This document shows positions 3,104 to 17,443 of a stretch of DNA of 64,000 nucleotides, one piece after another. The notes under the pieces are model-generated. The model did not search any database and had not been told where the DNA came from. It saw only the letters and a list, made by a program, of their open reading frames with translations. The stretch lies in assembly GCF_055900595.2 (NCBI RefSeq), contig NZ_CM148325.1, one strand, 5' to 3'. Made by a program: the position numbers and the translations under genes. Numbering within the stretch: position 1 is the first letter of the stretch; every line of letters begins with the position of its first letter.

Positions 3104-3813
3104 AACCCCACCTCGCAGACAAAGCGGGTGTAAATTGAGGGAATACAACGTATCGCAAAAAAGCAGAAACGTAACAGACTCGGAGTCAGTGAATAACTCA
3201 GGTATTGAGTTATCAGCTAATATCGAGACTCAAAAAATGGAAAAACCAGCTCGACGGCGGGTTTAAGCTGTGTGACGAAGTAACCACTCTTAACAGCATA
3301 ACCAATTTTTTACGTACGTAAACCACTGAATGATATTTATGAGAATGCTACCGAGTGTTCAAAACACCACCACAAATATATAAGAAAACCTCAACAAATA
3401 ACCAATAAATAATTTCCGGCGTTATTTTTAGTTGATTTGAATTAAACCACCGAATTATAGAACCCCCATAAATAACAGCCATTAATATAAATTAGCTAAT
3501 AGGTTTATTTTTGTTCAAATAAGAGCCATAAATAGGTTTCGATAGAAAAAGTTCAGATAAAAATAGAGATCTACTTCACAAATTAAATGAGAAACTAAAA
3601 CTTACATCTTGAAATAATCACATTGATTAGATGAATATTTATCGCGCAGTGACATCATTTTTTAATAATAGTTCAAAAAAAAGGGCTCACGATGAAAAAA
3701 TTAACAGTGGCAATTTCTGCTGTAGCTGCATCAGTACTGATGGCGATGTCTGCTCAGGCAGCTGAAATTTATAATAAAGACAGTAACAAGCTGGATCTGT
3801 ACGGGAAAGTTAA

Positions 3814-3822
3814 TGCCAAGCA
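3814..3822. repeat. Left copy of the 9-bp IS10 target-site duplication (TGCCAAGCA)
   Basis: Identical 9-mer abuts both IS10 termini. Confidence 0.8.
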
Positions 3823-5151
3823 CTGATGAATCCCCTAATGATTTTGGTAAAAATCATTAAGTTAAGGTGGATACACATCTTGTCATATGATCAAATGGTT
3901 TCGCCAAAAATCAATAATCAGACAACAAAATGTGCGAACTCGATATTTTACACGACTCTCTTTACCAATTCTGCCCCGAATTACACTTAAAACGACTCAA
4001 CAGCTTAACGTTGGCTTGCCACGCCTTACTTGACTGTAAAACTCTCACTCTTACCGAACTTGGCCGTAACCTGCCAACCAAAGCGAGAACAAAACATAAC
4101 ATCAAACGAATCGACCGATTGTTAGGTAATCGTCACCTCCACAAAGAGCGACTCGCTGTATACCGTTGGCATGCTAGCTTTATCTGTTCGGGCAATACGA
4201 TGCCCATTGTACTTGTTGACTGGTCTGATATCCGTGAGCAAAAACGGCTTATGGTATTGCGAGCTTCAGTCGCACTACACGGTCGTTCTGTTACTCTTTA
4301 TGAGAAAGCGTTCCCGCTTTCAGAGCAATGTTCAAAGAAAGCTCATGACCAATTTCTAGCCGACCTTGCGAGCATTCTACCGAGTAACACCACACCGCTC
4401 ATTGTCAGTGATGCTGGCTTTAAAGTGCCATGGTATAAATCCGTTGAGAAGCTGGGTTGGTACTGGTTAAGTCGAGTAAGAGGAAAAGTACAATATGCAG
4501 ACCTAGGAGCGGAAAACTGGAAACCTATCAGCAACTTACATGATATGTCATCTAGTCACTCAAAGACTTTAGGCTATAAGAGGCTGACTAAAAGCAATCC
4601 AATCTCATGCCAAATTCTATTGTATAAATCTCGCTCTAAAGGCCGAAAAAATCAGCGCTCGACACGGACTCATTGTCACCACCCGTCACCTAAAATCTAC
4701 TCAGCGTCGGCAAAGGAGCCATGGATTCTAGCAACTAACTTACCTGTTGAAATTCGAACACCCAAACAACTTGTTAATATCTATTCGAAGCGAATGCAGA
4801 TTGAAGAAACCTTCCGAGACTTGAAAAGTCCTGCCTACGGACTAGGCCTACGCCATAGCCGAACGAGCAGCTCAGAGCGTTTTGATATCATGCTGCTAAT
4901 CGCCCTGATGCTTCAACTAACATGTTGGCTTGCGGGCGTTCATGCTCAGAAACAAGGTTGGGACAAGCACTTCCAGGCTAACACAGTCAGAAATCGAAAC
5001 GTACTCTCAACAGTTCGCTTAGGCATGGAAGTTTTGCGGCATTCTGGCTACACAATAACAAGGGAAGACTCACTCGTGGCTGCAACCCTGCTTACTCAAA
5101 ATCTATTCACACATGGTTACGTTTTGGGGAAATTATGAGGGGATCTCTCAG
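3823..5151 (+). mobile_element. IS10 insertion sequence (1329 bp)
   Basis: Begins CTGATGAATCCCCTAATGATTTTGGTAAAAATCATTAAG and ends ...ATTATGAGGGGATCTCTCAG (IS10 outside/inside ends from memory); length 1329 bp; encodes the transposase. Confidence 0.9.
3930..5138 (+). CDS. IS10 transposase
   Basis: 402-aa [70 protein letters not shown]..., recognised as Tn10/IS10 transposase. Confidence 0.9.
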
Positions 5152-5160
5152 TGCCAAGCA
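5152..5160. repeat. Right copy of the 9-bp IS10 target-site duplication (TGCCAAGCA)
   Basis: Same 9-mer as 3814..3822; removing IS10 plus one copy restores ...VNAKHYFSS... in frame. Confidence 0.8.
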
Positions 5161-6250
5161 CTACTTTTCCTCTAACGATGCAGATGATGGTGATACTACT
5201 TATGCCCGTCTTGGCTTCAAAGGTGAAACCCAAATCAACGATCAACTGACTGGTTTCGGTCAGTGGGAATATGAATTCAAAGGCAACCGCGCTGAATCTC
5301 AAGGTTCCTCCAAAGACAAAACCCGTCTTGCATTTGCAGGCCTGAAATTCGGTGACTACGGCTCAATCGATTACGGCCGTAACTACGGTGTAGCATACGA
5401 CATCGGTGCGTGGACTGACGTCCTGCCAGAATTCGGTGGTGATACCTGGACCCAAACAGATGTGTTCATGACTGGTCGCACTACTGGTGTTGCAACTTAT
5501 CGTAACAACGACTTCTTTGGTCTGGTCGATGGCCTGAACTTTGCTGCTCAGTATCAGGGTAAAAATGACCGCACTGACGTAACTGAAGCCAATGGTGATG
5601 GTTTCGGTTTCTCCACTACTTATGAGTATGAAGGATTCGGCGTGGGTGCAACCTATGCTAAATCAGATCGCACTGACGGTCAGGTCGCCTATGGTAAGAG
5701 CAAATTCAATGCCTCCGGCAAAAATGCGGAAGTATGGGCTGCAGGCCTGAAATATGATGCGAACAATATCTATCTGGCTACCACATATTCTGAAACTCAG
5801 AATATGACCGTTTTTGGTAATAACCATATTGCAAACAAAGCACAAAACTTTGAAGCAGTAGCACAATATCAGTTTGACTTCGGTCTGCGCCCATCTGTTG
5901 CTTACCTTCAGTCAAAAGGTAAAGACCTTGGTGTTCATGGTGACCGAGACTTAGTCAAGTATGTCGATGTCGGTGCTACTTACTACTTTAATAAAAACAT
6001 GTCCACTTTTGTTGATTACAAAATCAACTTAATTGACGATAGTAAGTTTACCAAAACAGCTGGTATTGATACTGATGACATCGTTGCTGTAGGTCTGGTT
6101 TACCAGTTCTAATCTGATTACGAAAAAGATATGTTGCGGGAGGCGTTGCCTCCCCAACATATAAGTGGCTCCCTCAAGCCACTTCCTTTAGAAGCACAAC
6201 CTTGCTTCTAACTATATAAACCTTCTGTTATATATTACCCTTTATTTTTG

Positions 6251-6275
6251 GGGGCGTCTCAACGCCCCATTTTTA
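6251..6275 (+). terminator. Rho-independent terminator downstream of nmpC
   Basis: GGGGCG-TCTCAA-CGCCCC hairpin followed by ATTTTTAATAATTTTT. Confidence 0.55.
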
Positions 6276-6301
6276 ATAATTTTTAGTAAACAATTGGCAT
6301 A

Positions 6302-6700
6302 TTAATTAGAGTTATTAACAACGATATCCATCTCTAACCGGATATCTAATGCCATTAACATCCCTTCAATTATGCCCTCAGCCTTTTGTAACCTTTTCCC
6401 GATATAACCATCAGAGCAGCAATGCTTACCTGCCAGTGACATGAATGTCATACCGACTACATAATAATCTACTAATAAATCGTGCAAATCGCTGTTGTTC
6501 TTTTTCAGACGGGCCATGCACCCGCAAATGATCATCGCGTCATCGTCACAACATTGCGGGCGAGATTTTACTTTTGAAGGAATTAATCCCTTAAAACCGG
6601 CGGCAATGGACGACCAGGTCACATCTTCATGATTATTAGCCGCCCACGCTCCCCAACGCTCAAGAACCATCTGAATATCACGCATCAACTTACTCCACAA
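6302..6700 (-). CDS. quuD: Late-gene antiterminator Q-like protein
   Basis: 132-aa ORF ...[18 protein letters not shown]...[36 protein letters not shown]...; Q position upstream of the lysis cassette; recognised as DLP12 QuuD. Confidence 0.75.
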
Positions 6701-6767
6701 AACTCAGACCAGAACGCCAATTACAAGCAAAAATCAACAAAACAGTATTAGTTGATTGTTATCTCTG

Positions 6768-6908
6768 ACTTCATACTCCTGCTCCTGTCAGTGTTTTGGC
6801 GTAATTCTTCAGTATTCGGTAATCGGTCAAAACAGAGCCGGGGAAACGATATAAGCGCAGACGCCCCCAGCGGTGGCGAAGAAGTTCTGCCATATTAAAC
6901 TCAAACAT
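6768..6908 (-). CDS. ylcG: Small prophage protein (YlcG-like), 46 aa
   Basis: Manual translation [45 protein letters not shown]; start overlaps the rusA stop. Confidence 0.4.
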
Positions 6909-7270
6909 CATTCATTCCCCATTTCGGTGATGGTCAGTTCCAGCCTCCCACCTTTGGTAACAGGCATCTTCACAACGCGGTAATCAACGACCTGAGCATC
7001 ATCCAGCCAGAAACCTGCTTTAGTGAGTGCGTCAAAAGCGGCTTTTTGCAGATTATCCAGGTCACGGCGACGGCGATCCGGCATGTGGCACTCAATGCGG
7101 ATTTTCACAGGCATAGCCAGGCCGATATCCAGCATTGCGTTTTTAATGATTCGGGCGACGTTATCGCGGTATGCCTGCCCCTCTGCGCTGACGTGCGTGC
7201 GCCCGCGATTATGGCGGTAATAGCGATTATTGCTCGGAGGCCAGGGTAGTGTGATGTGGTAAGTATTCAC
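6908..7270 (-). CDS. rusA: Holliday-junction resolvase RusA
   Basis: 120-aa [54 protein letters not shown]..., recognised as RusA. Confidence 0.9.
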
Positions 7271-7559
7271 GCCTTAATTACCCTCTCTTTCAGCCAGATA
7301 ACCTGCGTTCTCGCCATACCTTCCAGCGCGCATTCTTTTGCATATCCAGCGTCAACAAAATGCGTGCGGCGGTCGATTTCGTCGTGGCAGGCAGAACATG
7401 CAATGGTGGCAATCAGGTCTGGCGGTTTGATACCGGTACCGCACAATCCAGCCAGCCGGATATGTGCCAGTACAGACGTCTCAGAATTGCCATTACATAC
7501 GCCAGGGATTCTTACCTGGCATTCCCGACCACGCGCTGCTTTTCTCAAATCAGCCATGA
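7267..7559 (-). CDS. ybcO: Nin-region protein YbcO (Cys-rich, putative nuclease)
   Basis: [62 protein letters not shown]...; start at the internal ATG of the track ORF. Confidence 0.8.
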
Positions 7560-7720
7560 TTCCTCCTTGCTGCCAGTCGCAACCATTTTTTATCAACCAG
7601 GCTAGCGGTATATCCGAGCAGTGTTGGTATTTCGGATGGCTTCAGCTCAGGCTTACGCTTACGACGATTTGATACTCTGTAGATGTGTCCGTTCATGACA
7701 CGAATAAGCGGTGTAGCCAT
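7547..7720 (-). CDS. ninE: NinE-like small protein
   Basis: Manual translation [56 protein letters not shown]; start overlaps the ybcN stop, stop overlaps the ybcO start. Confidence 0.55.
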
Positions 7721-8175
7721 TACGCCTCCTGCTTGTCGCGGAGCAGCTGGAACTCGCAGCTCTGCGGAATAGTCAGGTGGCAGCCAATATTCATCGCCCA
7801 GGCTTCAACCTTACACAGGAAGACATACATCTCTCCGGTATCAAGATTGGAGGTATGGCGTAACGACTGGATAGTGGTGATATCACCGGTTACGACATCA
7901 ACCAGGTCTTTGGTTTCATAACCGAGATATGTGTGTTTGAGAGCATCTTTTACCCAAGCTGGAGTGGCGAACGTTTTACCCCTGCTGATGAGGTATTCAC
8001 TGATTTCGCTGTACCACATGTGGCTGAGTGCATTCTGGGAAAGACTGCGTTTCTCACGCCACGGTTTAAGCACCAGGCGAAAGCATTTGCCCTCCTCCAG
8101 ATAAGGCTGGATCTGCCGACCGATAGCGGTGAAGTTGCCGCGATGTAATTTGATGCCGTCTTGTGAGAGGTTCAC
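7720..8175 (-). CDS. ybcN: NinB-family recombination protein
   Basis: 151-aa ORF (GTG start) [55 protein letters not shown]..., recognised as DLP12 YbcN. Confidence 0.85.
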
Positions 8176-8208
8176 GCTTCCCCTCCGCAGAGGTCAAACG
8201 TTGGATGC

Positions 8209-8333
8209 AAAAAAACGCAGGTGCATTTCTGCATCTGTGAAGGGAGAAGAGAGTTTGGATTGTATGTGCGCATAAACGTCCCCGTTTAGCGCAGAAGTCA
8301 CCGGAGTTGTTCAGGCTCCGATGACATGATTAT
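8209..8333. repeat. Direct repeat A (about 125 bp) flanking the accessory cassette
   Basis: AAAAAAACGCAGGTGCATTTCTGCATCTGTGAAGGGAGAAGAGAGTTTGGATTGT... aligns with 10596..10720, with about 16 substitutions and one 1-bp indel by manual alignment. Confidence 0.75.
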
Positions 8334-8359
8334 GGCGGGTTGATTATTGAAAATCAAAG

Positions 8360-9037
8360 TTAATCGTACGAGTCGAGTATGTTCTGAAACGCCCAGCCAT
8401 CCTCCTTAGGAACACAAGACAGAATCGAATGAATTAGATCCCCTGCGGAAAGAAGTAACCCTTCTTGCCCTTCAAGAAAATAACGCCATTTAGGTCCATG
8501 AAACAGATTGTTCCGTAACCGGAAACAAACGAACAAGCACACTGCAAGCTGAGTCTCAGGCTCGGTTGTCATAGCTTGCATGGCTGAAAAACAGTCATCT
8601 CTCGCCTTTTGAGAGGTGTGGTGTAATTCCCCGCATAGGCTTTCAAACTTGCTTTTATCATTTACATAGCGTTCTGAAAAAAAATCGTATGTACACTTGA
8701 GAACCCCCAGATCCACAACCTCCATTTGCAAAAGACGATTGGCATATTTCGCACTTTTGCCTTGCCCCCCAGCGCAATTAAGAAGTAGAGACTCGAAGAA
8801 AGAGAAGTACAAAAAATAACGATTAACGGCGGTAAGGATAGATGGGGTAATCCTGCCTTCTGCATTAATCAACTCGTCAAATTCTGATGAAAAATCCAAC
8901 TGTTCATCCTTTTCCATTATATTCGGCCATTTATTGATATTGCACATCAGTCGCTCTTGGCAATGACAGGTTTGCTCTCGGTAATGTCTCAAACGCCCCA
9001 AAAAGTAGTCTCGCAAATGCTCTAGTTGCTCGCGCAT
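8360..9037 (-). CDS. Hypothetical protein with a HEPN-like Rx4H motif (possible abortive-infection RNase)
   Basis: 225-aa ORF; C-terminal region contains ...CLFVCFRLRNNLFHGPKWRYF... (R-x4-H); AT-rich; weak RBS, start codon uncertain (alternative MEKDEQLDF...). Confidence 0.45.
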   Translation of the reverse strand: MREQLEHLRDYFLGRLRHYREQTCHCQERLMCNINKWPNIMEKDEQLDFSSEFDELINAEGRITPSILTAVNRYFLYFSFFESLLLNCAGGQGKSAKYANRLLQMEVVDLGVLKCTYDFFSERYVNDKSKFESLCGELHHTSQKARDDCFSAMQAMTTEPETQLAVCLFVCFRLRNNLFHGPKWRYFLEGQEGLLLSAGDLIHSILSCVPKEDGWAFQNILDSYD

Positions 9038-9161
9038 AACAACTTCGGCGATAACCGGCTATTCGGTCGTTCTTTATACGCTACGCTTGAAGGCGCAAGG
9101 CCAACGCTTACCTTGTCACGTTCCTATTGCGGTTTTGCTGCAATGTTCCTGTCAGTCTGAC

Positions 9162-9189
9162 ATAAAAAACCCCTCAATCATCTGAGGGG
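9162..9189 (-). terminator. Rho-independent terminator after the 66-aa gene
   Basis: On the minus strand CCCCTCA-GATGAT-TGAGGGG followed by TTTTTTAT. Confidence 0.55.
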
Positions 9190-9197
9190 ATTAGACA

Positions 9198-9398
9198 TCA
9201 TTGCTTCCAATACTTTTGAACCCGGATATTCATTGGCACACAAACATTTTCATAGATAGGGCCGCTAACAGTCATGACTATATAAATACCATCAAGACCA
9301 TCAATATTAAGCGAGAGTCTATCTCCGGCTCTAACCTCACGCTCTAGTTCAATATCTTCTACTCGTCCAGTATCATCGAAAGTCACTGAATACATCAT
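9198..9398 (-). CDS. Hypothetical small protein (66 aa)
   Basis: ORF MMYSVTFDDTGRVEDIELEREVRAGDRLSLNIDGLDGIYIVMTVSGPIYENVCVPMNIRVQKYWKQ followed by its own terminator; no recognisable family. Confidence 0.35.
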   Translation of the reverse strand: MMYSVTFDDTGRVEDIELEREVRAGDRLSLNIDGLDGIYIVMTVSGPIYENVCVPMNIRVQKYWKQ

Positions 9399-9560
9399 TT
9401 CAAATTTCCATCTAAGTGCATGAGGTGTCTAACGAAAATACCATAAAGAGAATTTGATTACATTGAACTTTTTCAGTGCTTACTTGGCTTATCTGAAGCC
9501 TTAATCATTGCCGCCCAGTGCGCTACCTGCTTGCATCCATTCAGCGCCTAATATGTAAAA

Positions 9561-10169
9561 CTATTGCAATCTAGCCTGACGCAAATGTGGCAATACCCTG
9601 CTCCACTTATTATCCTGCCAAGGCTGGAATTTTACATGTGCCGTTTTTCTGGCAAGGATTTCGCGCGCCTTATGTAGTATCTGGGGATATTCTTGCTCGA
9701 TAGAAGTAAAGCGACCGGCTTCGCGGTGTTCCGCAACCTGAAGAAGTGGAGTAACGTTCTGGCAGGCGGTTAACATCGTATCACTTGCTCGCCATAACCA
9801 AGCAAGTGTGCAAAGTTCGTTATCAGTGAATTGTTTTGTGATCGGGGATTGTTGAACTTCTCGATCGAGAATATCCAGAACCCAGCGGCGGAACTCTTTG
9901 GCTACAGGAGTTCGTGCAAACATGGCGATCAAATGGGCTCCGCGAAGGCTAAATACTCGAGACTCCTGCATTCCACGAGGGGTGGTCACTTTGACCACCC
10001 TTGTCATCATATCTGTAAATTCATCTGAGTGACGAGAGTAAATGCGCTGAACTGCTTTATCGTCCGCATATTCCAGAGCTAAACCAACTTCAGTGGCAGT
10101 AAGCCAAATTCTGTTATTGTGGCAAATTGGGGTAAACGTCGTTTTGTGGAATGCTAATTGAGTAGTCAT
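9561..10169 (-). CDS. Bro-N-like / phage antirepressor-family protein
   Basis: 202-aa ORF with N-terminal ...FHKTTFTPICHNNRIWLTATEVGLALEY...RGMQESRVFSLRGAHLIAMFARTPVAKEFRRWVLDIL...; good SD (GAGGTGA) 5 nt upstream of ATG. Confidence 0.55.
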   Translation of the reverse strand: MTTQLAFHKTTFTPICHNNRIWLTATEVGLALEYADDKAVQRIYSRHSDEFTDMMTRVVKVTTPRGMQESRVFSLRGAHLIAMFARTPVAKEFRRWVLDILDREVQQSPITKQFTDNELCTLAWLWRASDTMLTACQNVTPLLQVAEHREAGRFTSIEQEYPQILHKAREILARKTAHVKFQPWQDNKWSRVLPHLRQARLQ

Positions 10170-10331
10170 AGTATCACCTCATCAGGTTAACCATCACCAC
10201 CAACGACGCCAATCGACTGGTGGTGAACTGTGCAAGGTTGGCGTAACCGGCTACTCAAACCCGGCGCTCCCGAAGAAGCCCTCACACAGCCCACCATAAT
10301 TTGGGCGTAGCCGTGCTTAGCGCATAAAAAA

Positions 10332-10346
10332 ACCGCTTAACGCGGT
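10332..10346 (-). terminator. Possible rho-independent terminator upstream of the Bro-N-like gene
   Basis: Minus strand ACCGC-GTTAA-GCGGT followed by TTTTTTTAT; short stem. Confidence 0.35.
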
Positions 10347-10432
10347 ATGCGTTGAGTAGTATTCCGGGACGCCAATCCCGTGTGCCGATTTTGCGGCAAC
10401 GCACAGAATATAGCGCCGGATAAATAATGTCG

Positions 10433-10621
10433 TCAACCCTTGCAAATGGGTGGCGCGATGATCACTACTACCACTATAACCGCTCCAACTGTTGCAACTA
10501 CTTTAGGCCAAGACATCAAGATTTCCATATCACCTTTAGCTGCGAAACGAACAGAGGTTCCCATCTCTATACTGCCGAGGCCAAACACCGAATATAAAAA
10601 ACCGCAGGTGCATTTCTGCAT
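10433..10621 (-). CDS. Possible small hydrophobic peptide (about 31 aa from the internal start MEILMSWPKVVATVGAVIVVVVIIAPPICKG)
   Basis: Track ORF of 62 aa; internal ATG preceded by AAAGGTGAT; hydrophobic C-terminal segment; starts inside direct repeat B. Confidence 0.2.
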   Translation of the reverse strand: MQKCTCGFLYSVFGLGSIEMGTSVRFAAKGDMEILMSWPKVVATVGAVIVVVVIIAPPICKG

Positions 10622-10720
10622 CTATGACGGGAGAAGATAGTTTGGATTGTGTGGGCTCATAAACTCCCCGTTTGGTGCAGTAGTCACCGTAGTTGTTCAT
10701 ATTCTGATGACATGATAATT
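10596..10720. repeat. Direct repeat B (about 125 bp), partner of 8209..8333
   Basis: AAAAAACCGCAGGTGCATTTCTGCATCTATGACGGGAGAAGATAGTTTGGATTGT..., same orientation as repeat A. Confidence 0.75.
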
Positions 10721-10917
10721 TCCTATTGAATAGAAAAAATTAACACTACTCATTCTTATGACTAGAAAAAGCAATCATGCTAATAATCATTGTTGTTCCA
10801 GTTCCAAATGCAGCGAAATAATCACTAATATTTTTTCTACCGGTTTCGACTTTGATGCTATATTCTGCTAACACCTAACTAACACTACGTTTCACACAGC
10901 AATTACATGGAAATAAC

Positions 10918-11265
10918 ATGACTATCAAAGCGACTGACATAGAGATTCTTCATCGTTATGCTGAAGGGGTAATGGAACGTTCTAACCATCATGCAAAAAA
11001 TGTTGGTGCAGCCGCTCTTACATTGCTAGGAGGTGTTATCTGGAAAGCCCTGCCCGGCTCAATCGAGATAAGAACGTATAACGGAAGTCTTGCAAATATG
11101 GTGTGGTGGCAAAGCGAAAGAACATTAAAAAATTATGCAATCTCATACAACCATAATTCATGTGAAATTGAAATGAGAGATGAATCAGTCAAAGGTGCTG
11201 TATTATTTAGCATTTCCAACGAAACCACTCCAGAAAAAATATTATCACAGCTTTCTGAGCTTTAA
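10918..11265 (+). CDS. Hypothetical protein (115 aa), oriented against the surrounding early operon
   Basis: ORF MTIKATDIEILHRYAEGVMERSNHHAKNVGAAALTLLGGVIWKALPGSIEIRTYNGSLANMVWWQSERTL...; AT-rich; no family recognised. Confidence 0.45.
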   Translation: MTIKATDIEILHRYAEGVMERSNHHAKNVGAAALTLLGGVIWKALPGSIEIRTYNGSLANMVWWQSERTLKNYAISYNHNSCEIEMRDESVKGAVLFSISNETTPEKILSQLSEL

Positions 11266-11270
11266 TTAAA

Positions 11271-11288
11271 GGCGGTGCTAACACCGCC
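11271..11288 (-). terminator. Hairpin terminator between P and the 115-aa gene (tR2-like position)
   Basis: GGCGGTG-CTAA-CACCGCC; on the minus strand followed by TTTAATTAAA. Confidence 0.45.
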
Positions 11289-11469
11289 CATACCATTACT
11301 CCACATCTTACGCAACTTGATAATTATGCTCTATTAAATACCCACAATATTTCATCAATGCATGGGTCAGCTATAAAATGTTTACCGTGGTAATTCCTGT
11401 TTTCGCAACATCTCAAAAGAACAATAAACACTGTATTTCTTCAAGTAACGAAGAATCTTTCTTTGCCCG

Positions 11470-12171
11470 TCATACACTTGCTCCTTTCAGCCCAAACTTA
11501 GCTTTGATTTCTGCGATCTTCGCCAGAGCCTGTGCACGATTTAGAGGTCTACCGCCCATGACAGGAAGTTGTTTTACTGGTTCAGGTATCGCCTCACCAC
11601 GGTTAATTCGCGCGGTCATACAGGTCAGCTCATCGGCAGCTTTACGCCGTAATTCCGCGTCAGTCAGCGCATTGGCCCGCATGTTCTGGTACAGGTTGGT
11701 AACCAACCAGTAGTGCGCGTTTGATTTCCATGGATAAGACTCTGCGTCCGGATACAGGCCACGCTTCCGGCAATACTCGTAAACCATATCAACCAGCTCG
11801 CTAGCGTTTGGCAGCCCGGCGGTAACGGATGCTTCTTCCCGGCACCAGGCAACAAACTGCCCGGGTGATGGCAGGAATGGTCGATTCTGCCGACGGGCTA
11901 CGCGCATTCCAGCGTTAACCTGTTCCATCGTGGTGATCCCATTTTCCCGGAAAGCCAGAACCCACTGGCGGCGGATTTCGTTCAGTTCGTTCTGGTCACG
12001 GTTAGCCAGGCTCGCAGGGAAAGTTGCCAGTAACTGGCTGAACACACCGTTGATGATCTGCGCTACCTGCTGTACCTGCGGCTTTTCGTCGTACTGTTCC
12101 GGCATGTTGTTGGCGATCCGACGCATCTGCTCACGGTCAAAGTTAACCATCTGTGCGGCGATGTTTTTCAT
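11470..12171 (-). CDS. P: Replication protein P (DnaB helicase loader), lambda-like
   Basis: 233-aa ORF MKNIAAQMVNFDREQMRRIANNMPEQYDEKPQVQQVAQIINGVFSQLLATFPASLANRDQNE..., recognised as near-identical to lambda P. Confidence 0.92.
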   Translation of the reverse strand: MKNIAAQMVNFDREQMRRIANNMPEQYDEKPQVQQVAQIINGVFSQLLATFPASLANRDQNELNEIRRQWVLAFRENGITTMEQVNAGMRVARRQNRPFLPSPGQFVAWCREEASVTAGLPNASELVDMVYEYCRKRGLYPDAESYPWKSNAHYWLVTNLYQNMRANALTDAELRRKAADELTCMTARINRGEAIPEPVKQLPVMGGRPLNRAQALAKIAEIKAKFGLKGASV

Positions 12172-13097
12172 AGATCAACCCCGTAAATCCAGTCTGTGTT
12201 TGTCAGGTCGAGTTTTGGTTTGCTGGCTGTCACGCCTGCCTGTTGCTTGTTACGGTTGATTTCGAGCTGGGTCCACTTGTCGCGGAGTTTGGCCGGACTT
12301 AGCACGTTACCGGACCAGAAGTTGTCCTGGCATGCCCAGCGGAACAGCACGCACATGTCGCGGTGGTTACGTCCGTCACGTTCACGCATCAGGCGGATAT
12401 CGTTAGCCCACCCTGCAAAATTCGGTTTTCTGGCTGATGGCGCGATGGTCTTCACCATGTCAAACATCCACTCTGCGGCGGTCAGGTCTTCTGCTGTCCC
12501 CCACTTGCTGCCGCTCTGAATCGCAGCATCCGGTTTCACCACAGGAAGGTCGTTTTCTGGCTGATCAGAGGATTCGCCAGAATTCTCGGACGAATAAGGT
12601 TTTATATTGTCTTTTGTTAGTTTGTCTTTTGTGTTTACCTGATTCGGGTAAACGCCTTTACCTGATTTGGGTAAACTTTTCTTACCTGATTCAGGTAAAT
12701 TTACCTCTTTCAGGTAAACTTTATTTTTCTTACCTGATTCGGGTAATGTTGACCATTCACTGACCACATTATTAATACCGATATTCCGCCCGCTCTGAAT
12801 CAAAATCCCACGCTTTACCAGAACACTTTTTGCAGCAGAACACTTGTGCGGTAATATCTCGGTCAATCCAGACAGTTGCTCGTTGCTCACCCAATCCAGT
12901 TTTTTATTAAAGCCATATGTTTTGCGCATGACAGCCAGGAAGACCAGAAGCTGGTGCTGTGTTAATCCGGCCAGCATCACAGCTTCCAGCAACTCATTTG
13001 CAATGCGCGTATAACCATCATCGAGATCTGCCACGCGCGGCTCCTTTTGTGCCGCATCCGGCACTGGAAAATTGAATATCTCAGCAGTGTTTGCCAT
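12168..13097 (-). CDS. O: Replication initiator O (lambda-like C-terminus, divergent iteron-binding N-terminus)
   Basis: Start taken at MANTAEIFNFP... (SD GGGAGGA upstream) inside track ORF 12168..13187; C-terminus ...WMFDMVKTIAPSARKPNFAGWANDIRLMRERDGRNHRDMCVLFRWACQDNFWSGNVLSPAKLRDKWTQLEINRNKQQAGVTASKPKLDLTNTDWIYGVDL matches lambda O. Confidence 0.85.
   Translation of the reverse strand: MANTAEIFNFPVPDAAQKEPRVADLDDGYTRIANELLEAVMLAGLTQHQLLVFLAVMRKTYGFNKKLDWVSNEQLSGLTEILPHKCSAAKSVLVKRGILIQSGRNIGINNVVSEWSTLPESGKKNKVYLKEVNLPESGKKSLPKSGKGVYPNQVNTKDKLTKDNIKPYSSENSGESSDQPENDLPVVKPDAAIQSGSKWGTAEDLTAAEWMFDMVKTIAPSARKPNFAGWANDIRLMRERDGRNHRDMCVLFRWACQDNFWSGNVLSPAKLRDKWTQLEINRNKQQAGVTASKPKLDLTNTDWIYGVDL
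12635..12746. repeat. Phage replication origin: five iterons (TTACCTGATTCGGGTAAA-like inverted repeats) inside the O gene, next to an AT-rich stretch
   Basis: Copies at about 12635, 12658, 12682, 12701 and 12730, each with TTACC...GGTAA arms; AT-rich run at 12600..12634. Confidence 0.65.
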
Positions 13098-13183
13098 AAT
13101 TCCTCCCGCAATGAGTGTGTTACGATTTGCACCTGAAAGTCGGTTCTGTTCCAGCAGACCGGCTTTCGCCATTTCTGAACCTG

Positions 13184-13723
13184 TCATATCGCCCCCAGCA
13201 TGGTAGTAACCATCGCCATCAATGGACCAGCCAGATCTGGGTCCACACGAAACATCGATACAATACCTTCACTAATTTCCTTCAGTTTCTGGTGGCGTGG
13301 TGCGTTGAGAATGACAGCCTGTTTTGCCTCACTGAGTTCCTTTTCCATTTCAGCCAGCCGAGCTATGAAGCTATCCTGCTCAACCAGGTGGCCGCGATAT
13401 TCCAGCGGTAGTACCGCCAGAATTGCCGGGGTCAGTTCACGCACGTTATTTCGGTATTTTTCAGAATCGAATTTGTTATCGAGGAAGCGGAACAGCTTCT
13501 GGCGTGCACGGCTGACATCATCAGGGAAATCGATGGTGCCGCCGCCCTGCTCCCGATACTCATTCACAATGAGTGCGGCAACGACATCCTGATTATCTAC
13601 AGCCGACCAGGCGCGGACGGCATCACGGATTTTTTCGTGGCCTGGAGCTTGTTTTGTTTGAGAACGATTTATCACCGCAGTCGGGCTAAATCCGCTAGTC
13701 TGTTGGTATGTAAGTGGTTGCAT
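13184..13723 (-). CDS. CII-position regulator, YdaT-like
   Basis: 179-aa ORF with strong SD (AAAGGAG); ...VNEYREQGGGTIDFP...LTPAILAVLPLEYRGHL... resembles Rac YdaT (EEYLRQGGGELPL / LIPAILAILPRELRHRL, from memory). Confidence 0.55.
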   Translation of the reverse strand: MQPLTYQQTSGFSPTAVINRSQTKQAPGHEKIRDAVRAWSAVDNQDVVAALIVNEYREQGGGTIDFPDDVSRARQKLFRFLDNKFDSEKYRNNVRELTPAILAVLPLEYRGHLVEQDSFIARLAEMEKELSEAKQAVILNAPRHQKLKEISEGIVSMFRVDPDLAGPLMAMVTTMLGAI

Positions 13724-13792
13724 AATTGACTCCTTTAGTTTGAATTGACTGTTAAGTTGATTGCTTATTGTTAAAGAGCGTGAAATGGAAAT

Positions 13793-14023
13793 TTAAGCTG
13801 CGTTCTTTTCAGTGTGTGGAAACAACTTCGGAAGATCCGGGCGAATCTGGTATGCCTTCACTACTCCACCAGTAGCCGTAACAATGCTGCCGACATGTTC
13901 AGGGGATACCTTTGCTTTGTTGTGAAGCCACTTATAGACGGCCTGCTGTGAAACTTCGCAGGCAGCGCCTAGTTTCTTTTGTGAACCAACGATATTGATC
14001 GCTGTTTTGATGGCTGGGTTCAT
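13793..14023 (-). CDS. cro: Cro-like HTH repressor (YdaS-type)
   Basis: 76-aa ORF MNPAIKTAINIVGSQKKLGAACEVSQQAVYKWLHNKAKVSPEHV...; divergent from cI. Confidence 0.6.
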   Translation of the reverse strand: MNPAIKTAINIVGSQKKLGAACEVSQQAVYKWLHNKAKVSPEHVGSIVTATGGVVKAYQIRPDLPKLFPHTEKNAA

Positions 14024-14127
14024 AACAACCTCCGTGGTTAATTTGAATCAAGATTAAAACTATGGTTGTTTTTAGTCAACAACCATTTTCGTTTGATGAA
14101 ATAAAACCTTGGTTGTACATTTGGACT
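14024..14127. promoter_or_regulatory. Divergent cro/cI control region (oR-like operators with pR/pRM)
   Basis: Perfect palindrome ATGGTTGTT-tttagtc-AACAACCAT at 14062..14086 plus further TGGTTGT/ACAACA half-sites; cI AUG at 14128 lacks an SD, consistent with a leaderless pRM-type transcript. Confidence 0.5.
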
Positions 14128-14817
14128 ATGAAAACAACACTCTCAGAAAGACTTAAAGAAGCCAGATTAGCGCGAGGCCTTACACAAAAGGCGCTTGGGG
14201 ATTTGGTCGGGGTTAGCCAAGCAGCTATTCAGAAAATCGAAACAGGGAAAGCTAACCAAACAACTAAAATCGTGGAGATCGCGAACGCTTTGGGTGTGCG
14301 CGCAGAATGGTTATCTTCTGGCGTTGGAAATATGTCAGACAGTACAGTGCAACCAATACAAACAACTGTCAGCCATTCCAAATACTTTAAGATTGACGTT
14401 CTTGATATCGAAGTGAGTGCCGGGCCGGGAGTCATCAACCGTGAGTTTGTAGAAGTTCTACGTTCGGTTGAGTATTCGTTTGACGATGCTCGTCACATGT
14501 TCGATGGCAGGAAGGCGGAAAATATCCGTATCATTAACGTACGCGGTGACAGCATGTCAGGAACGATCGAACCAGGTGATCTGCTATTCGTTGATATCAC
14601 TGTTAAATCTTTCGACGGTGATGGTATCTATGCGTTTCTGTACGACGACACAGCCCATGTAAAGCGCCTGCAAATGATGAAGGATAAACTGCTGGTTATC
14701 TCTGATAACAAGAGCTACTCACCGTGGGACCCAATCGAGAAAGACGAGATGAACCGGGTATTCATCTTCGGGAAAGTCATCGGGAGCATGCCGCAGACGT
14801 ATAGGAAGCATGGATAA
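14128..14817 (+). CDS. cI: CI-type prophage repressor (N-terminal HTH, C-terminal LexA-like S24 peptidase)
   Basis: MKTTLSERLKEARLARGLTQKALGDLVGVSQAAIQKIETGK... then ...EVSAGPG...INVRGDSMSGTIEPGDLLFVD...HVKRL... (Ala-Gly cleavage site, Ser/Lys dyad). Confidence 0.85.
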   Translation: MKTTLSERLKEARLARGLTQKALGDLVGVSQAAIQKIETGKANQTTKIVEIANALGVRAEWLSSGVGNMSDSTVQPIQTTVSHSKYFKIDVLDIEVSAGPGVINREFVEVLRSVEYSFDDARHMFDGRKAENIRIINVRGDSMSGTIEPGDLLFVDITVKSFDGDGIYAFLYDDTAHVKRLQMMKDKLLVISDNKSYSPWDPIEKDEMNRVFIFGKVIGSMPQTYRKHG

Positions 14818-14912
14818 TTCGACATAAATTCAACAAGTTAACTTTGGCTTCAAAAAAGCATCGATAACATTGCATTATATTTTTCCTTTTGTCTAACTTA
14901 AAAGGATGAACA

Positions 14913-15638
14913 ATGGAAGAACGTGGGAATTACCTAATAGACCCCCTAGAAGTAATTGGTTCTGGCGGTTTTGGCCTTGTAGAAAAAATAAGGTTATATA
15001 ACTCACAAAGAAAAATTTGTGGTCTATATGCCAGAAAAATTTTACGACCTGATGCAACAGATCCTGAACTCTTTACCAGATTTGAACGAGAAGTAAGATA
15101 TCAAACTGAATGCCTGCATACTAATATTGTCCAAATATTCATATGCCACTTACAGAATGCTCAGCCTTGGTTCGTAATGGAACTAGCAGAAACAAATCTT
15201 GAAGAAGAAATAAAAAGTGGAACTCTTACAAAGGCTGAAAAAATCTCTATTGTAAAAATGGTACTAAATGCCGTCGGATGGATTCATAAGAAAGGATATC
15301 TTCATCGGGATATAAAACCACTAAATGTACTAAAATTTAAAGATGGAATTTATAAGTTATCTGACTTCGGCCTTGCAAAAAATGTGTCACCAGATGCCAA
15401 TACACAGCTATTAACACAAATTGGCCAATACCCCGCTACTCCTAAATACTTTGATTACAACGTTTTCCTCAACGGATATTCAAAACAATCAGATATATAT
15501 TCAATTGGTATTTTAATTGAAGAATTAAATATTGATGGTTTTGATGATATAATAAACAAATGTACGCATAGACAACTTAACAAAAGATTCCTGACCGTAG
15601 AGCAGATCTTTGAGGAATTGGAGTTGAAACGCTTATGA
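14913..15638 (+). CDS. Hanks-type (eukaryotic-like) Ser/Thr protein kinase, compact catalytic domain only
   Basis: 241 aa; glycine-rich loop GSGGFG; catalytic loop HRDIKPLN; DFG motif SDFGLAK; SD AGGA 7 nt upstream; AT-rich. Confidence 0.85.
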   Translation: MEERGNYLIDPLEVIGSGGFGLVEKIRLYNSQRKICGLYARKILRPDATDPELFTRFEREVRYQTECLHTNIVQIFICHLQNAQPWFVMELAETNLEEEIKSGTLTKAEKISIVKMVLNAVGWIHKKGYLHRDIKPLNVLKFKDGIYKLSDFGLAKNVSPDANTQLLTQIGQYPATPKYFDYNVFLNGYSKQSDIYSIGILIEELNIDGFDDIINKCTHRQLNKRFLTVEQIFEELELKRL

Positions 15639-16378
15639 TTAGCATACTCTCATCATCCATATTTTCTGTACCAAAACATAATGGCAGGGAAAATCAAGAT
15701 AGCGTGCTTTATCCACTTCAAACACCAAATGGTTATCTTATGGCTATAGCTGATGGGGTTGGTGGTTATAAAGGAGGAAAAGAAGCATCTGCAGCAGTAA
15801 TAAATCATTTGTATAGTATTAAAGACAGCTTCACTCATGAAGACAATGTCTTATCCTTACTTAAGACCCTACAAGAAAAGGTGGCATCTCTTTCGTCAGT
15901 TGATAAAGAATTAGCATCTGCTGCTACAACTTTAACAATGTGCCTACTTCACAATCAAGGTCTAACAATTATACATGTAGGTGACTGTCGTGTTTATTTA
16001 AAAAATGGAAATAAGCTAATCCAATTAACAACAGATCATACTCAACATCAAATGTTGATAGATAGCGGTATTTATACAGCTCGACAGCTCAAAAATGCAA
16101 AAGGTAAAAATATTATTACAACTGCACTTGCTGCCAAGATCCCCCTTCAACATCAAGTCATAAATATTGATAAAGATGAACTTCCTCTTGACGATGGTGT
16201 TCTATCTCTATTCATCATGTCTGATGGCGCGCATACCTTTTGGGAGCAACGCCCACGATTTTCTTACCGTACATTGTCAACCGCATCAAGGTTTGCCTCC
16301 AGCCTAATGCGAAGAATAGAGACAAAAGGCCCGACTGACGATTATTCTCTTATAGCGGTAAATGTAAAGTATTTGTAA
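15635..16378 (+). CDS. PP2C-family (PPM) Ser/Thr protein phosphatase
   Basis: 247 aa; AIADGVGG and HVGDCRVYL metal-binding motifs, ...FIMSDGAHT...; start ATG overlaps the kinase stop (ATGA). Confidence 0.8.
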   Translation: MISILSSSIFSVPKHNGRENQDSVLYPLQTPNGYLMAIADGVGGYKGGKEASAAVINHLYSIKDSFTHEDNVLSLLKTLQEKVASLSSVDKELASAATTLTMCLLHNQGLTIIHVGDCRVYLKNGNKLIQLTTDHTQHQMLIDSGIYTARQLKNAKGKNIITTALAAKIPLQHQVINIDKDELPLDDGVLSLFIMSDGAHTFWEQRPRFSYRTLSTASRFASSLMRRIETKGPTDDYSLIAVNVKYL

Positions 16379-16382
16379 ACTT

Positions 16383-16410
16383 CCCGGCCACCGTGCCGGG
16401 TTTTCTTTTA
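16383..16410 (+). terminator. Rho-independent terminator ending the cI-kinase-phosphatase operon
   Basis: CCCGGC-CACCGT-GCCGGG followed by TTTTCTTTTAT. Confidence 0.6.
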
Positions 16411-16479
16411 TCCCCTCCCCTCATCACGTATACCGTTCAAAAAACCACCACAATCTCCCTTCAGTTATCGCTATGCGAT

Positions 16480-16620
16480 GCAAGTCACAAAATAAATCCA
16501 TCCTAAATACAACCAGTTACATCTAAAACAACCAATAAAACAACTTTTGTTGTTGACGATAAAACAACTATAGTTTTAAATAAATTCATCGCAACAACAC
16601 AACGATACGGCAACCACCTG
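16480..16620 (+). promoter_or_regulatory. Putative oL/pL region (operator half-sites and a candidate leftward promoter)
   Basis: Several ACAACCA/ACAAC half-sites similar to the oR sites; candidate -35 TTGACG and -10 TAAATA with an 18-bp spacer reading toward gam-bet-exo. Confidence 0.35.
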
Positions 16621-16774
16621 ATTCACCGTTGCGATGACCGCTTAGATCCGCAGCTTGAATTTCAGCAGGCTTCGGGGAGTGCGAGGGATGAAACGGACGC
16701 GTGAACGTCGGTGTGACCAGCTGAAATCAACTCAACATTTCATACCTTAGTCGCTTCAACGAGGCGGCTTAGTT

Positions 16775-17065
16775 ATGACAACCGGCGGCCATCCACCGCC
16801 TGAATACGCGCAGAAGTCTTTATATGTTCAGCAGCCCAGCTTACGGGCAGGAGTTTTTATGGTTCATCAACATTACGGAACGCAGACCGTTAATCGAGGT
16901 GCGGTCATGCCAGGAATGCTGGTCAAACACAAAGATGGTACCTGGACTGCATCAGCTAATTTACGCGGACGGCTTTATCTGCATCGCGGCATCGAGCGCA
17001 CTTATACCCGTGATTTGCTCGTGGAAGTTTTTCTCGACGGACGCGGTAACGGCCTGAATCACTAA
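16775..17065 (+). CDS. Hypothetical small protein between pL and gam (96-aa track ORF; an internal start with SD AGGAG at 16859 gives 68 aa)
   Basis: ...[68 protein letters not shown]; occupies the kil/cIII position; not recognised as N. Confidence 0.35.
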
Positions 17066-17141
17066 CCCCCCTTTCCTGTTTTCCTTATCAGCCTGGCATT
17101 TCGCGGGCGATATTTTCACAGCCATTTTCAGGAGTTCAGCC

Positions 17142-17438
17142 ATGAACGCTTATTACATTCAGGATCGTCTTGAGGCTCAGAGCTGGGCGCGTCACTACCA
17201 GCAGATCGCCCGTGAAGAGAAAGAGGCAGAACTGGCAGACGACATGGAAAAAGGCCTGCCCCAGCACCTGTTTGAATCGCTATGCATCGATCATTTGCAA
17301 CGCCACGGGGCCAGCAAAAAAGCCATTACCCGTGCGTTTGATGACGATGTTGAGTTTCAGGAGCGCATGGCAGAACACATCCGTTACATGGTTGAAACCA
17401 TTGCTCACCACCAGGTTGATATTGATTCAGAGGTATAA
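17142..17438 (+). CDS. gam: Gam (RecBCD inhibitor), short form
   Basis: 98-aa [63 protein letters not shown]..., matches lambda GamS; an in-frame TGA at 17055 precludes a long form from an upstream ATG. Confidence 0.9.
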
Positions 17439-17443
17439 AACGG

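Follow-up and report, generated by a model that had tools for sequence, protein, structure and literature searches.

An N-less early-left region in a DLP12-type prophage lineage of Escherichia coli, with a conserved RNA motif in the kil leader

How can a lambdoid prophage transcribe its early leftward genes when the region that should hold the antiterminator gene N has none? The question is raised by a DLP12-type prophage in a stretch of 64,000 nucleotides (nt) of NCBI RefSeq assembly GCF_055900595.2, contig NZ_CM148325.1, the whole of which is called here the window; positions are those of the window, and + denotes the strand given. An earlier note, made from the sequence alone, had pointed out that the interval 16411–17141, between the leftward promoter (pL) region and gam, holds no recognizable N, and had offered two explanations, namely a deletion or a mode of antitermination that does without N. 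Our analysis makes it reasonably likely that this is an N-less early-left region of DLP12 type in which N is unneeded for Kil, Gam and Red, in which the leader of the pL transcript controls kil, and which descends from an ancestor that did use N. Lambdoid phages without N are already known, that is, HK022, which uses put, and LLS, discussed as such in the literature (PMC12315714), and the locus in the window is one more copy of a common, already sequenced N-less architecture. What is new here is that put is excluded, that the loss is mapped to a cassette of N and the terminator tL1, that a relic nutR site is recognized, and that an RNA motif supported by covariation is described.

The N antiterminator gene is truly missing from the lineage to which this prophage belongs. 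Searching the whole window by tblastn with lambda N, phi80 N, HK022 Nun, a P22-like gp24 fragment, P22 gp24 and phage 21 N gave only noise; among the matches listed, which were those of lambda N and phi80 N, the best one overlapping the interval was to lambda N, with an E-value of 0.6, and it lies at 17101–17262, mostly within gam. No match to an antiterminator family was found in PHROGs for the open reading frames (ORFs) of at least 20 amino acids (aa) in the interval, nor in Pfam and NCBIfam for the main ones. The absence of an N-like protein noted earlier is thus borne out, and the same holds for the absence of a nut site, since no boxA with up to two mismatches to GCTCTTTAACAA occurs in 16411–17141. 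The search for put-like RNA that had been suggested together with that for N and Nun homologues was run with a covariance model (R1) built from eight aligned genuine put RNAs. This model recognized putR elements on which it had not been trained (54 bits in UPF_BP1 and 51.7 bits in phiEt88), true sites scoring 52–101 bits overall. With filters off, the best score in the region 11000–21600 was 4.9 bits, and none exceeded 8.3 bits anywhere in the window; the model found nothing in the related loci and nothing in contigs with this type of leader. That is, put is excluded for this lineage. Furthermore, a scan of 13500–18000 against Rfam 15 at E ≤10 returned chance matches only, none of them in 16411–17141.

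The interval is limited upstream by an intrinsic terminator (16383–16400, +; CCCGGCCACCGTGCCGGG followed by TTTTCTTTT, with six G-C pairs and a T run), which ends the transcript of the cI, Ser/Thr kinase and PP2C phosphatase genes and is kept in relatives that have different moron genes, and downstream by the gam ATG at 17142. The OL operators and pL (16535–16587, +) form an inverted copy of the OR/pR region located between cI and cro: 16561–16579 is 95% complementary to 14054–14072, and 16535–16563 matches 14069–14097. The proposal that Red and Gam stand under a repressor-controlled promoter is supported by this arrangement, in which OL/pL (16535–16581) mirrors OR/pR (14054–14097). As read from the sequence, the pL hexamers are TTGACG (−35, 16553–16558) and TTAAAT (−10, 16576–16581), separated by 17 nt, with the predicted transcription start (+1) at the A around 16588, 6 nt 3′ of the −10 hexamer. 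Homology to prophages of other immunity types begins exactly at 16588/16589, which supports the view that a transcribed module common to them starts there. The pL leader is an untranslated region of about 270 nt without a conserved ORF. Its lineage-specific 5′ part comprises 153 nt (16588–16740, +) and includes a predicted 5′ stem-loop at about 16586–16637; the first 60 nt are C-rich and G-poor, with a C/G ratio of 1.9–3.0. By nhmmer there is one copy of this 153-nt leader per phage, and no second copy in the pR operon that would form a pair comparable to putL and putR.

The N-less early-left layout is the normal, lineage-wide architecture and not a private deletion. The pL leader was found in 2231 of 5426 complete E. 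coli genomes (41%) and in only 16 phage genome records, each with at least 94% identity (e.g. 4A7, Lambda_4C10, Perceval, IdasGreatGrand and Turner), and it is because the same architecture recurs in these genomes and records that a local deletion is rejected. Phage 4A7 belongs to the genus Bievrevirus, and the architecture occurs in a species classified by the International Committee on Taxonomy of Viruses (ICTV). The order common to the phages and prophages of the lineage is cI, variable defence-like morons, a terminator, pL, the leader, kil, gam, bet and exo. No N is annotated in the 16 phage records, in the full annotation of 4A7, which does list a Q-like antiterminator, or in the NCBI annotations of five E. 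coli prophages. No other lambdoid early-left architecture is as common in E. coli (about 41% of complete genomes), and both the Red recombination genes and a division inhibitor that is toxic are under its control.

The division inhibitor is encoded by the ORF that the earlier note had correctly located behind an AGGAG motif, in forms of 68 and 96 aa, and had left without a function. The 68-aa form (16859–17065, +; ribosome-binding site AGGAG at 16849–16853) is a kil gene of the FtsZ-inhibitor family and of the type of KilR of the Rac prophage. Over residues 1–68 it matches phrog_294 ('Kil protein for bacterial septation inhibition') with an E-value of 1.3e-37, and the NCBIfam family NF008465 (FtsZ inhibitor protein) with an E-value of 1.8e-17 (profile positions 1–70 of 73); the score of 63 bits lies under the subfamily cut-off of 92 bits, so that the protein is a more distant member. 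It is 36% identical to Rac KilR (E 9e-13), Met1 being aligned to Met1, copies in relatives are annotated as Kil or cell division inhibitor, and it is unrelated to lambda Kil. From this family membership, inhibition of FtsZ and of cell division would be expected of the Kil in the window. The 28 extra codons of the 96-aa form (16775–17065, +) are not conserved as coding sequence. That the 68/96-aa ORF might be a known member of the N family was also checked; it is not, the match being to Kil instead. In other phages, small ORFs between the leader motif described below and kil were considered as cIII, for which Pfam gave no support.

The gam gene (17142–17438, +), followed by bet and exo, encodes only the 98-aa GamS, which matches Pfam PF06064 over residues 1–98 (profile positions 1–98 of 98; E 3.4e-65), the Pfam model itself having 98 positions; at the DNA level it is about 98% identical to lambda gam over the aligned part. 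Immediately upstream, 17060–17141 (+) is a remnant of the 5′ part of lambda gamL together with the GamS ribosome-binding site. This remnant is about 95% identical to lambda gam codons ~17–40, with two single-base insertions that put it out of frame, and 5′ of it the end of the KilR-type gene replaces the lambda sequence. The first in-frame stop 5′ of the gam ATG is the TGA at 17055. The 138-aa long form of Gam is not encoded, given the two 1-nt insertions, this TGA and the lack of an upstream start codon. Alignment to lambda gam and inspection of the frames thus agree with the earlier observation that the sequence upstream of gam is gam-like, closed by an in-frame TGA, and leaves only the 98-aa protein to be made.

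Between the 153-nt part of the leader and kil lies a structured RNA of 60 nt (16741–16800, +), which we call the kil-leader motif. It is made up of two hairpins. P1 (16741–16777, +) is long and irregular, with a base CAUAC(C)/G(U)UAUG that includes the AUG at 16775, a middle stem that varies and a top, UUC...GAG, that is conserved, and P2 (16784–16800, +) reads GGCGG-CCAUCCA-CCGCC. The motif is carried by phi80, HK225, HK639, CobraSix, S9-5, KO-TP1, ENT1 and more than 120 IMG/VR contigs, including phages of Enterobacter, Klebsiella and Salmonella; copies in our loci are at L009 3004–3062, L010 2983–3041, L003 4004–4063 and L022 782–822 (−). In HK225 the motif is about 95% identical to the copy in the window, compared with only about 75% for the adjoining kil coding sequence. 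Across 61 distinct motif sequences, 97.5% of the cells are paired and seven pairs have changed on both sides, and the covariation score is 0.331 versus 0.120 for shuffled sequences (none of 500 shuffles reached 0.331) and at most 0.051 when the partners were slid. The pattern used to collect the copies fixed GTTATGA and P2 as constant, so that their invariance is not evidence; the covariation resides in P1. The covariance model finds one sense copy per phage at 66–88 bits, the copy in the window scoring 86.9 bits, and by itself that copy folds into the structure of the model (minimum free energy −23.9 kcal/mol, z −3.4). No Rfam family covers the motif, and the phi80, S9-5 and HK639 copies gave nothing at E ≤1. 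The motif is newly described here as an RNA element supported by covariation, and as a defined element it can be tested directly by mutation.

Two other explanations of the conservation of the motif were rejected. The first is a leader peptide (MTTGGHPPP), for which the distance between the AUG and P2 would have to be kept in frame; since this distance varies by 2–5 nt, the nucleotides are conserved and the frame is not, and no conserved peptide is made from the motif. The second is a structure on the opposite strand, which is ruled out by the many G-U pairs, which place the structure on the sense strand, and by far lower scores of the antisense model. Relatives that consist of P1 only were found by the motif model in lambda and HK022, upstream of cIII. 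The lambda P1-type hairpin adjoins but falls outside Lambda_thermo (RF01804), the only Rfam match there. With the same model, no second copy was found in the rightward operon, and nothing in the Rac locus.

The position of the motif in other phages indicates what is missing here. In phi80, N is followed by the terminator tL1A and then directly by the 60-nt motif, and in HK639 and HK225 one or more genes and a terminator precede it. As a rule the motif stands immediately behind an intrinsic terminator: among 136 copies, mostly from IMG/VR, 88 directly follow a T run, 41 have a DLP12-type leader, and two (loci L053 and L120) have a true putL immediately upstream. In the lineage of the window, the 153-nt leader joins the common kil module at the first base of the motif. 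By this comparison, the lineage is without precisely the cassette of first gene and terminator that phi80, HK225, HK639 and numerous further lambdoid phages have.

Relics of an N system were found on the rightward side. Between the cro-like ydaS and ydaT lies a perfect boxA of the rrn type (CGCUCUUUAACAA, 13768–13780, −), at the position of nutR, the core 12-mer of which occurs nowhere else in the window as an exact copy. The sequence behind it forms no hairpin (−0.8 kcal/mol). Other phages that carry the same boxA have a boxB-like hairpin of 5–6 bp about 18 nt further on, e.g. GGCUGA-AUUA-UCAGCC, and one locus with the same N-less leader (L113) retains GACUG-AUUAA-CAGUC; in the window and 17 other loci the hairpin is gone through a 12-nt deletion between TTAACAG repeats. 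Moreover, when both are numbered from +1, the pL leader and the lambda N leader align without a shift of register and agree at 24 of 33 positions, a score equalled by 6 of 1000 shuffles. Because a boxA stands at the nutR position with its boxB deleted and the leader bears this weak similarity to that of lambda, the lineage probably descends from an N-using ancestor. Taken together with the comparison to phi80, HK225 and HK639, the relic nutR and the weak in-register similarity to the lambda leader fit an ancient, lineage-wide loss of the N and tL1 cassette. As to the two explanations offered at the outset, deletion is thus retained in the sense of a loss throughout the lineage and not as a local event, and for antitermination by another mechanism we found no positive evidence, put being excluded. 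The missing cassette, the boxA without boxB and the junction at a conserved RNA motif provide a concrete evolutionary account of how N was lost.

Would the genes of the pL operon be reached without N? From pL to the end of exo, all terminator-like matches are weak, with 5–6 pairs and poor T runs, and because our scan showed no strong intrinsic terminator along this path, N is probably unneeded for Kil, Gam and Red. We propose that, once the S24 repressor is cleaved, transcripts from pL would run through kil, gam, bet and exo, all of which would be reached without N antitermination. Control of the toxic kil would then likely be exerted at the long C-rich leader and the motif, the probable mechanism being Rho/NusG-dependent attenuation, as in Rac kilR. 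This kind of attenuation is preferred for the leader because the first 60 nt are C-rich and G-poor and because there is a precedent in Rac kilR, the expression of which is held down via NusG-dependent termination (PMC5793797).

Further downstream the situation is different. The first convincing terminator-like site in the pL operon (19562–19580, +; eight pairs and then TTTTTATTATT), conserved in 4A7, lies between the exo-distal small genes on one side and a TraR/DksA-like gene, xis and int on the other, and since this hairpin precedes xis-int, the excision functions would need read-through or an internal promoter. Likewise, two strong terminator-like hairpins (10346–10332 and 9189–9170, −) are located between P and Q, and sites comparable to them occur in 4A7. 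Since such hairpins are present downstream in both early operons, a read-through device or internal promoters must exist, candidates for which are internal promoters, the leader RNA, and boxA together with host Nus factors. One promoter-like site (TTGATT-17-CATAAT, 8357–8329, −) is located 5′ of ybcN-ninE-rusA-Q, and an identical site precedes ybcN in 4A7. In the literature that we searched, no explanation was found for the passage of the terminator-like sites before Q and before xis-int in this lineage.

Host Nus factors acting alone at the rightward boxA, as they do in rrn, suhB and CRISPR leaders, could in principle suppress Rho-dependent termination without any phage protein. The boxA invites this explanation, being an exact rrn-type element at the nutR position, the sole exact copy in 64 kb, and conserved in the 18 loci that have this cro module. 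However, it is explained equally well as a relic, the pL leader has no boxA, and the element is also absent from relatives in which the cro module is a different one, such as 4A7, whose genomes were nevertheless deposited as phages. Furthermore, complexes formed on boxA alone are known to counter Rho, and not intrinsic terminators like those of the nin region. We therefore regard this explanation as unlikely, if the strongest of the alternatives.

A slightly less probable alternative is that the pL leader acts in cis, through the RNA of its 153-nt part, of the 60-nt motif or of both, and lets RNA polymerase resist termination, which would make it a functional analogue of HK022 put unrelated to it in sequence. 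Like putL, the leader is conserved from exactly +1, and this across three or more immunity types, in L053 and L120 its place immediately before the motif is taken by a true putL, the motif has two hairpins and a size like that of put, and there are downstream terminator-like sites in both operons to be passed. Against this, neither leader nor motif matches the put covariance model, and no second copy of either is present in the rightward operon, which also holds terminators. The motif is not specific to phages without N either, because it is present in phi80, which has N, and in the put phages HK639, CobraSix and S9-5, and in all of these it lies 3′ of the first terminator. The 153-nt part, for its part, varies too little for any structure test. 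Two related readings go further. In one, the motif would represent a cis-regulatory RNA family not described before, which gates the kil and Red module of enterobacterial lambdoid phages as a Rho- or translation-linked attenuator. In the other, which concerns the N-less DLP12-type lineage, the motif would together with the 153-nt leader also bring about read-through without N, and would be a second antitermination system made of RNA only and unrelated to put. Both readings appear just as doubtful as the put analogue itself.

It is very improbable that the arginine-rich ORF in the leader (MKRTRERRCDQLKSTQHFIP and a stop codon, 16688–16750, +), which does end after about 20 codons as had been noticed, represents a minimal or fused N-like RNA-binding antiterminator, read in some relatives into Kil as a protein of 125–136 aa. 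By eye, its KRTRERR resembles TRRRERR in the arginine-rich motif of lambda N, and in 4A7 and SE15 the frame is open into kil. However, among 27 leader variants, in which the start is usually GTG, a TAG stop closes the ORF in about 8, and indels uncouple its frame from that of kil in at least 7, and in HK225 the frame upstream of kil closes after 21 codons; Kil, moreover, aligns to KilR from its own Met1. A tblastn search of 50,697 phage records gave matches only within the lineage, neither this search nor hidden Markov models revealed similarity to any N or to any other relative outside it, and a boxB-like hairpin partner is absent. Nor is an N-like part present downstream of the arginine-rich stretch, N being a protein of about 100 aa with regions that bind NusA and RNA polymerase. 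Judged by these comparisons, the ORF is neither conserved as coding sequence nor homologous to N, and the variation in stop codons and frame among the 27 variants rules it out as N or as an N–Kil fusion. Least credible of all is a recent deletion of N, ral, sieB and cIII that left this prophage defective: about 2.3 kb of genes are indeed missing relative to lambda, but the identical architecture of the 2231 genomes, the 16 phage records and one ICTV-classified species refutes it.

Several points nevertheless weigh against the account preferred here, namely an N-less region in which the leader controls kil and N is unneeded as far as exo. It is a matter of prediction that +1 lies where stated, that Rho sites are lacking and that the hairpins at 17008 and 17091 are weak. 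The terminator-like hairpins before xis-int and before Q stand in the way of the later genes. The similarity to the lambda leader is weak, and boxA is limited to one type of cro module and is lacking in the 4A7 type. Finally, P1 could itself be a partial terminator 5′ of kil, since its lambda homologue may be one of the terminators of the tL2 cluster. In the two lambda records used, no terminator features are annotated, and the PreS preprint locates tL2a between ral and ea10.

A number of observations concern the leader and the spacer in front of it. The loop of the leader's 5′ stem-loop contains CAACAACACAAC (16592–16603, +), 12 nt that are perfectly complementary to the R1 seed of GcvB (GcvB nt 72–83). 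A match this long occurred in 4 of 2000 shuffles, the extended duplex has a predicted energy of −33.7 kcal/mol, and the complement is not present in the 7784-type and L063 leader variants; it could be a target of GcvB, a sponge, or a chance match in a CA-rich stretch. Homology of the leader to kilS of Rac was rejected since the sequences are unrelated, and homology to AgvB since AgvB sits at PR′ and not at pL. The spacer between the moron terminator and OL (16411–16530, +) is conserved across immunity types and has a C-rich run and a palindrome, ATCGCTATGCGAT, at about 16468–16480.

The prophage as a whole is an intact lambdoid prophage of DLP12 type, next to a tRNA-Arg gene and upstream of fimZ. 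Upstream of pL are the genes for a cI-like S24 (LexA-like) repressor (14062–14817, +), a Ser/Thr kinase (14913–15638, +) and a PP2C phosphatase (15635–16378, +), and on the opposite strand those for the cro-like YdaS, YdaT, O and P. On the 3′ side of the interval follow gam, bet, exo, small genes, xis, int (20383–21546), the tRNA gene and fimZ. In near-identical prophages, intD, tRNA-Arg, fimZ, quuD, essD and rrrD are the genes annotated by NCBI. The kinase and phosphatase genes (14913–16378, +), between cI and pL, occupy the slot of lambda rexAB. Relatives have other genes there, for a SIR2 protein, a HipA-like kinase with DUF3037, an ASCH protein or DUF6932. Morons that are cotranscribed with the repressor and likely serve defence or exclusion have a hot spot in this slot. 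Two large ORFs of the + strand, of 402 and 325 aa, are located at 3930–6112, close to the Q and porin region. The complete E. coli genomes of the collection each match at most 71% of the length of 3500–17200, and the mosaic of this prophage is therefore unrepresented in that collection.

How does this region compare with known systems? With HK022 put it has in common only a position, that is, an RNA element that starts at +1 of pL in a phage without N, whereas the leader here has no match in sequence or structure and no partner site in the rightward operon. The Rac kilR region shares a YdaS/YdaT-type immunity region, the absence of N, a homologous Kil and a long untranslated region 5′ of kil, but the leader sequences are unrelated, and kilS is unlike the leader of the window. 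As an observation on Rac itself, RefSeq annotates the small RNA kilS 5′ of kilR in E. coli K-12 (L016 6406–6503, −), and kil leaders can thus give stable RNAs. DLP12 of E. coli K-12 has the same integration neighbourhood (tRNA-Arg and fimZ) and the same late and nin genes (intD, ybcN, ninE, rusA, quuD, essD, rrrD and the nmpC/ompC porin gene); K-12 DLP12 has lost its immunity and early-left region, of which the window holds an intact version.

With lambda, the early-left region shares a repressor-controlled pL with mirrored operators, nearly identical gamS, bet and exo, transcripts that begin with AUC and have GGCUU(Y)GGGG at +81 to +90, and a P1-type hairpin (CAUACC...GUUAUG), located in lambda 5′ of the cIII/kil module. 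It differs in that nutL, N, sieB, ral, ea10 and cIII are absent from the window, the gamL start is lost and Kil is of the unrelated KilR type, whereas lambda has P1 alone and then the cIII thermoregulator element RF01804. In phi80, HK225 and HK639, nutL and N (phi80), a phi80-like nutL (HK225) or putL (HK639), together with one or more genes and a terminator, come before the motif; from that point on, all three have what the window has, the same 60-nt motif followed by the kil module.

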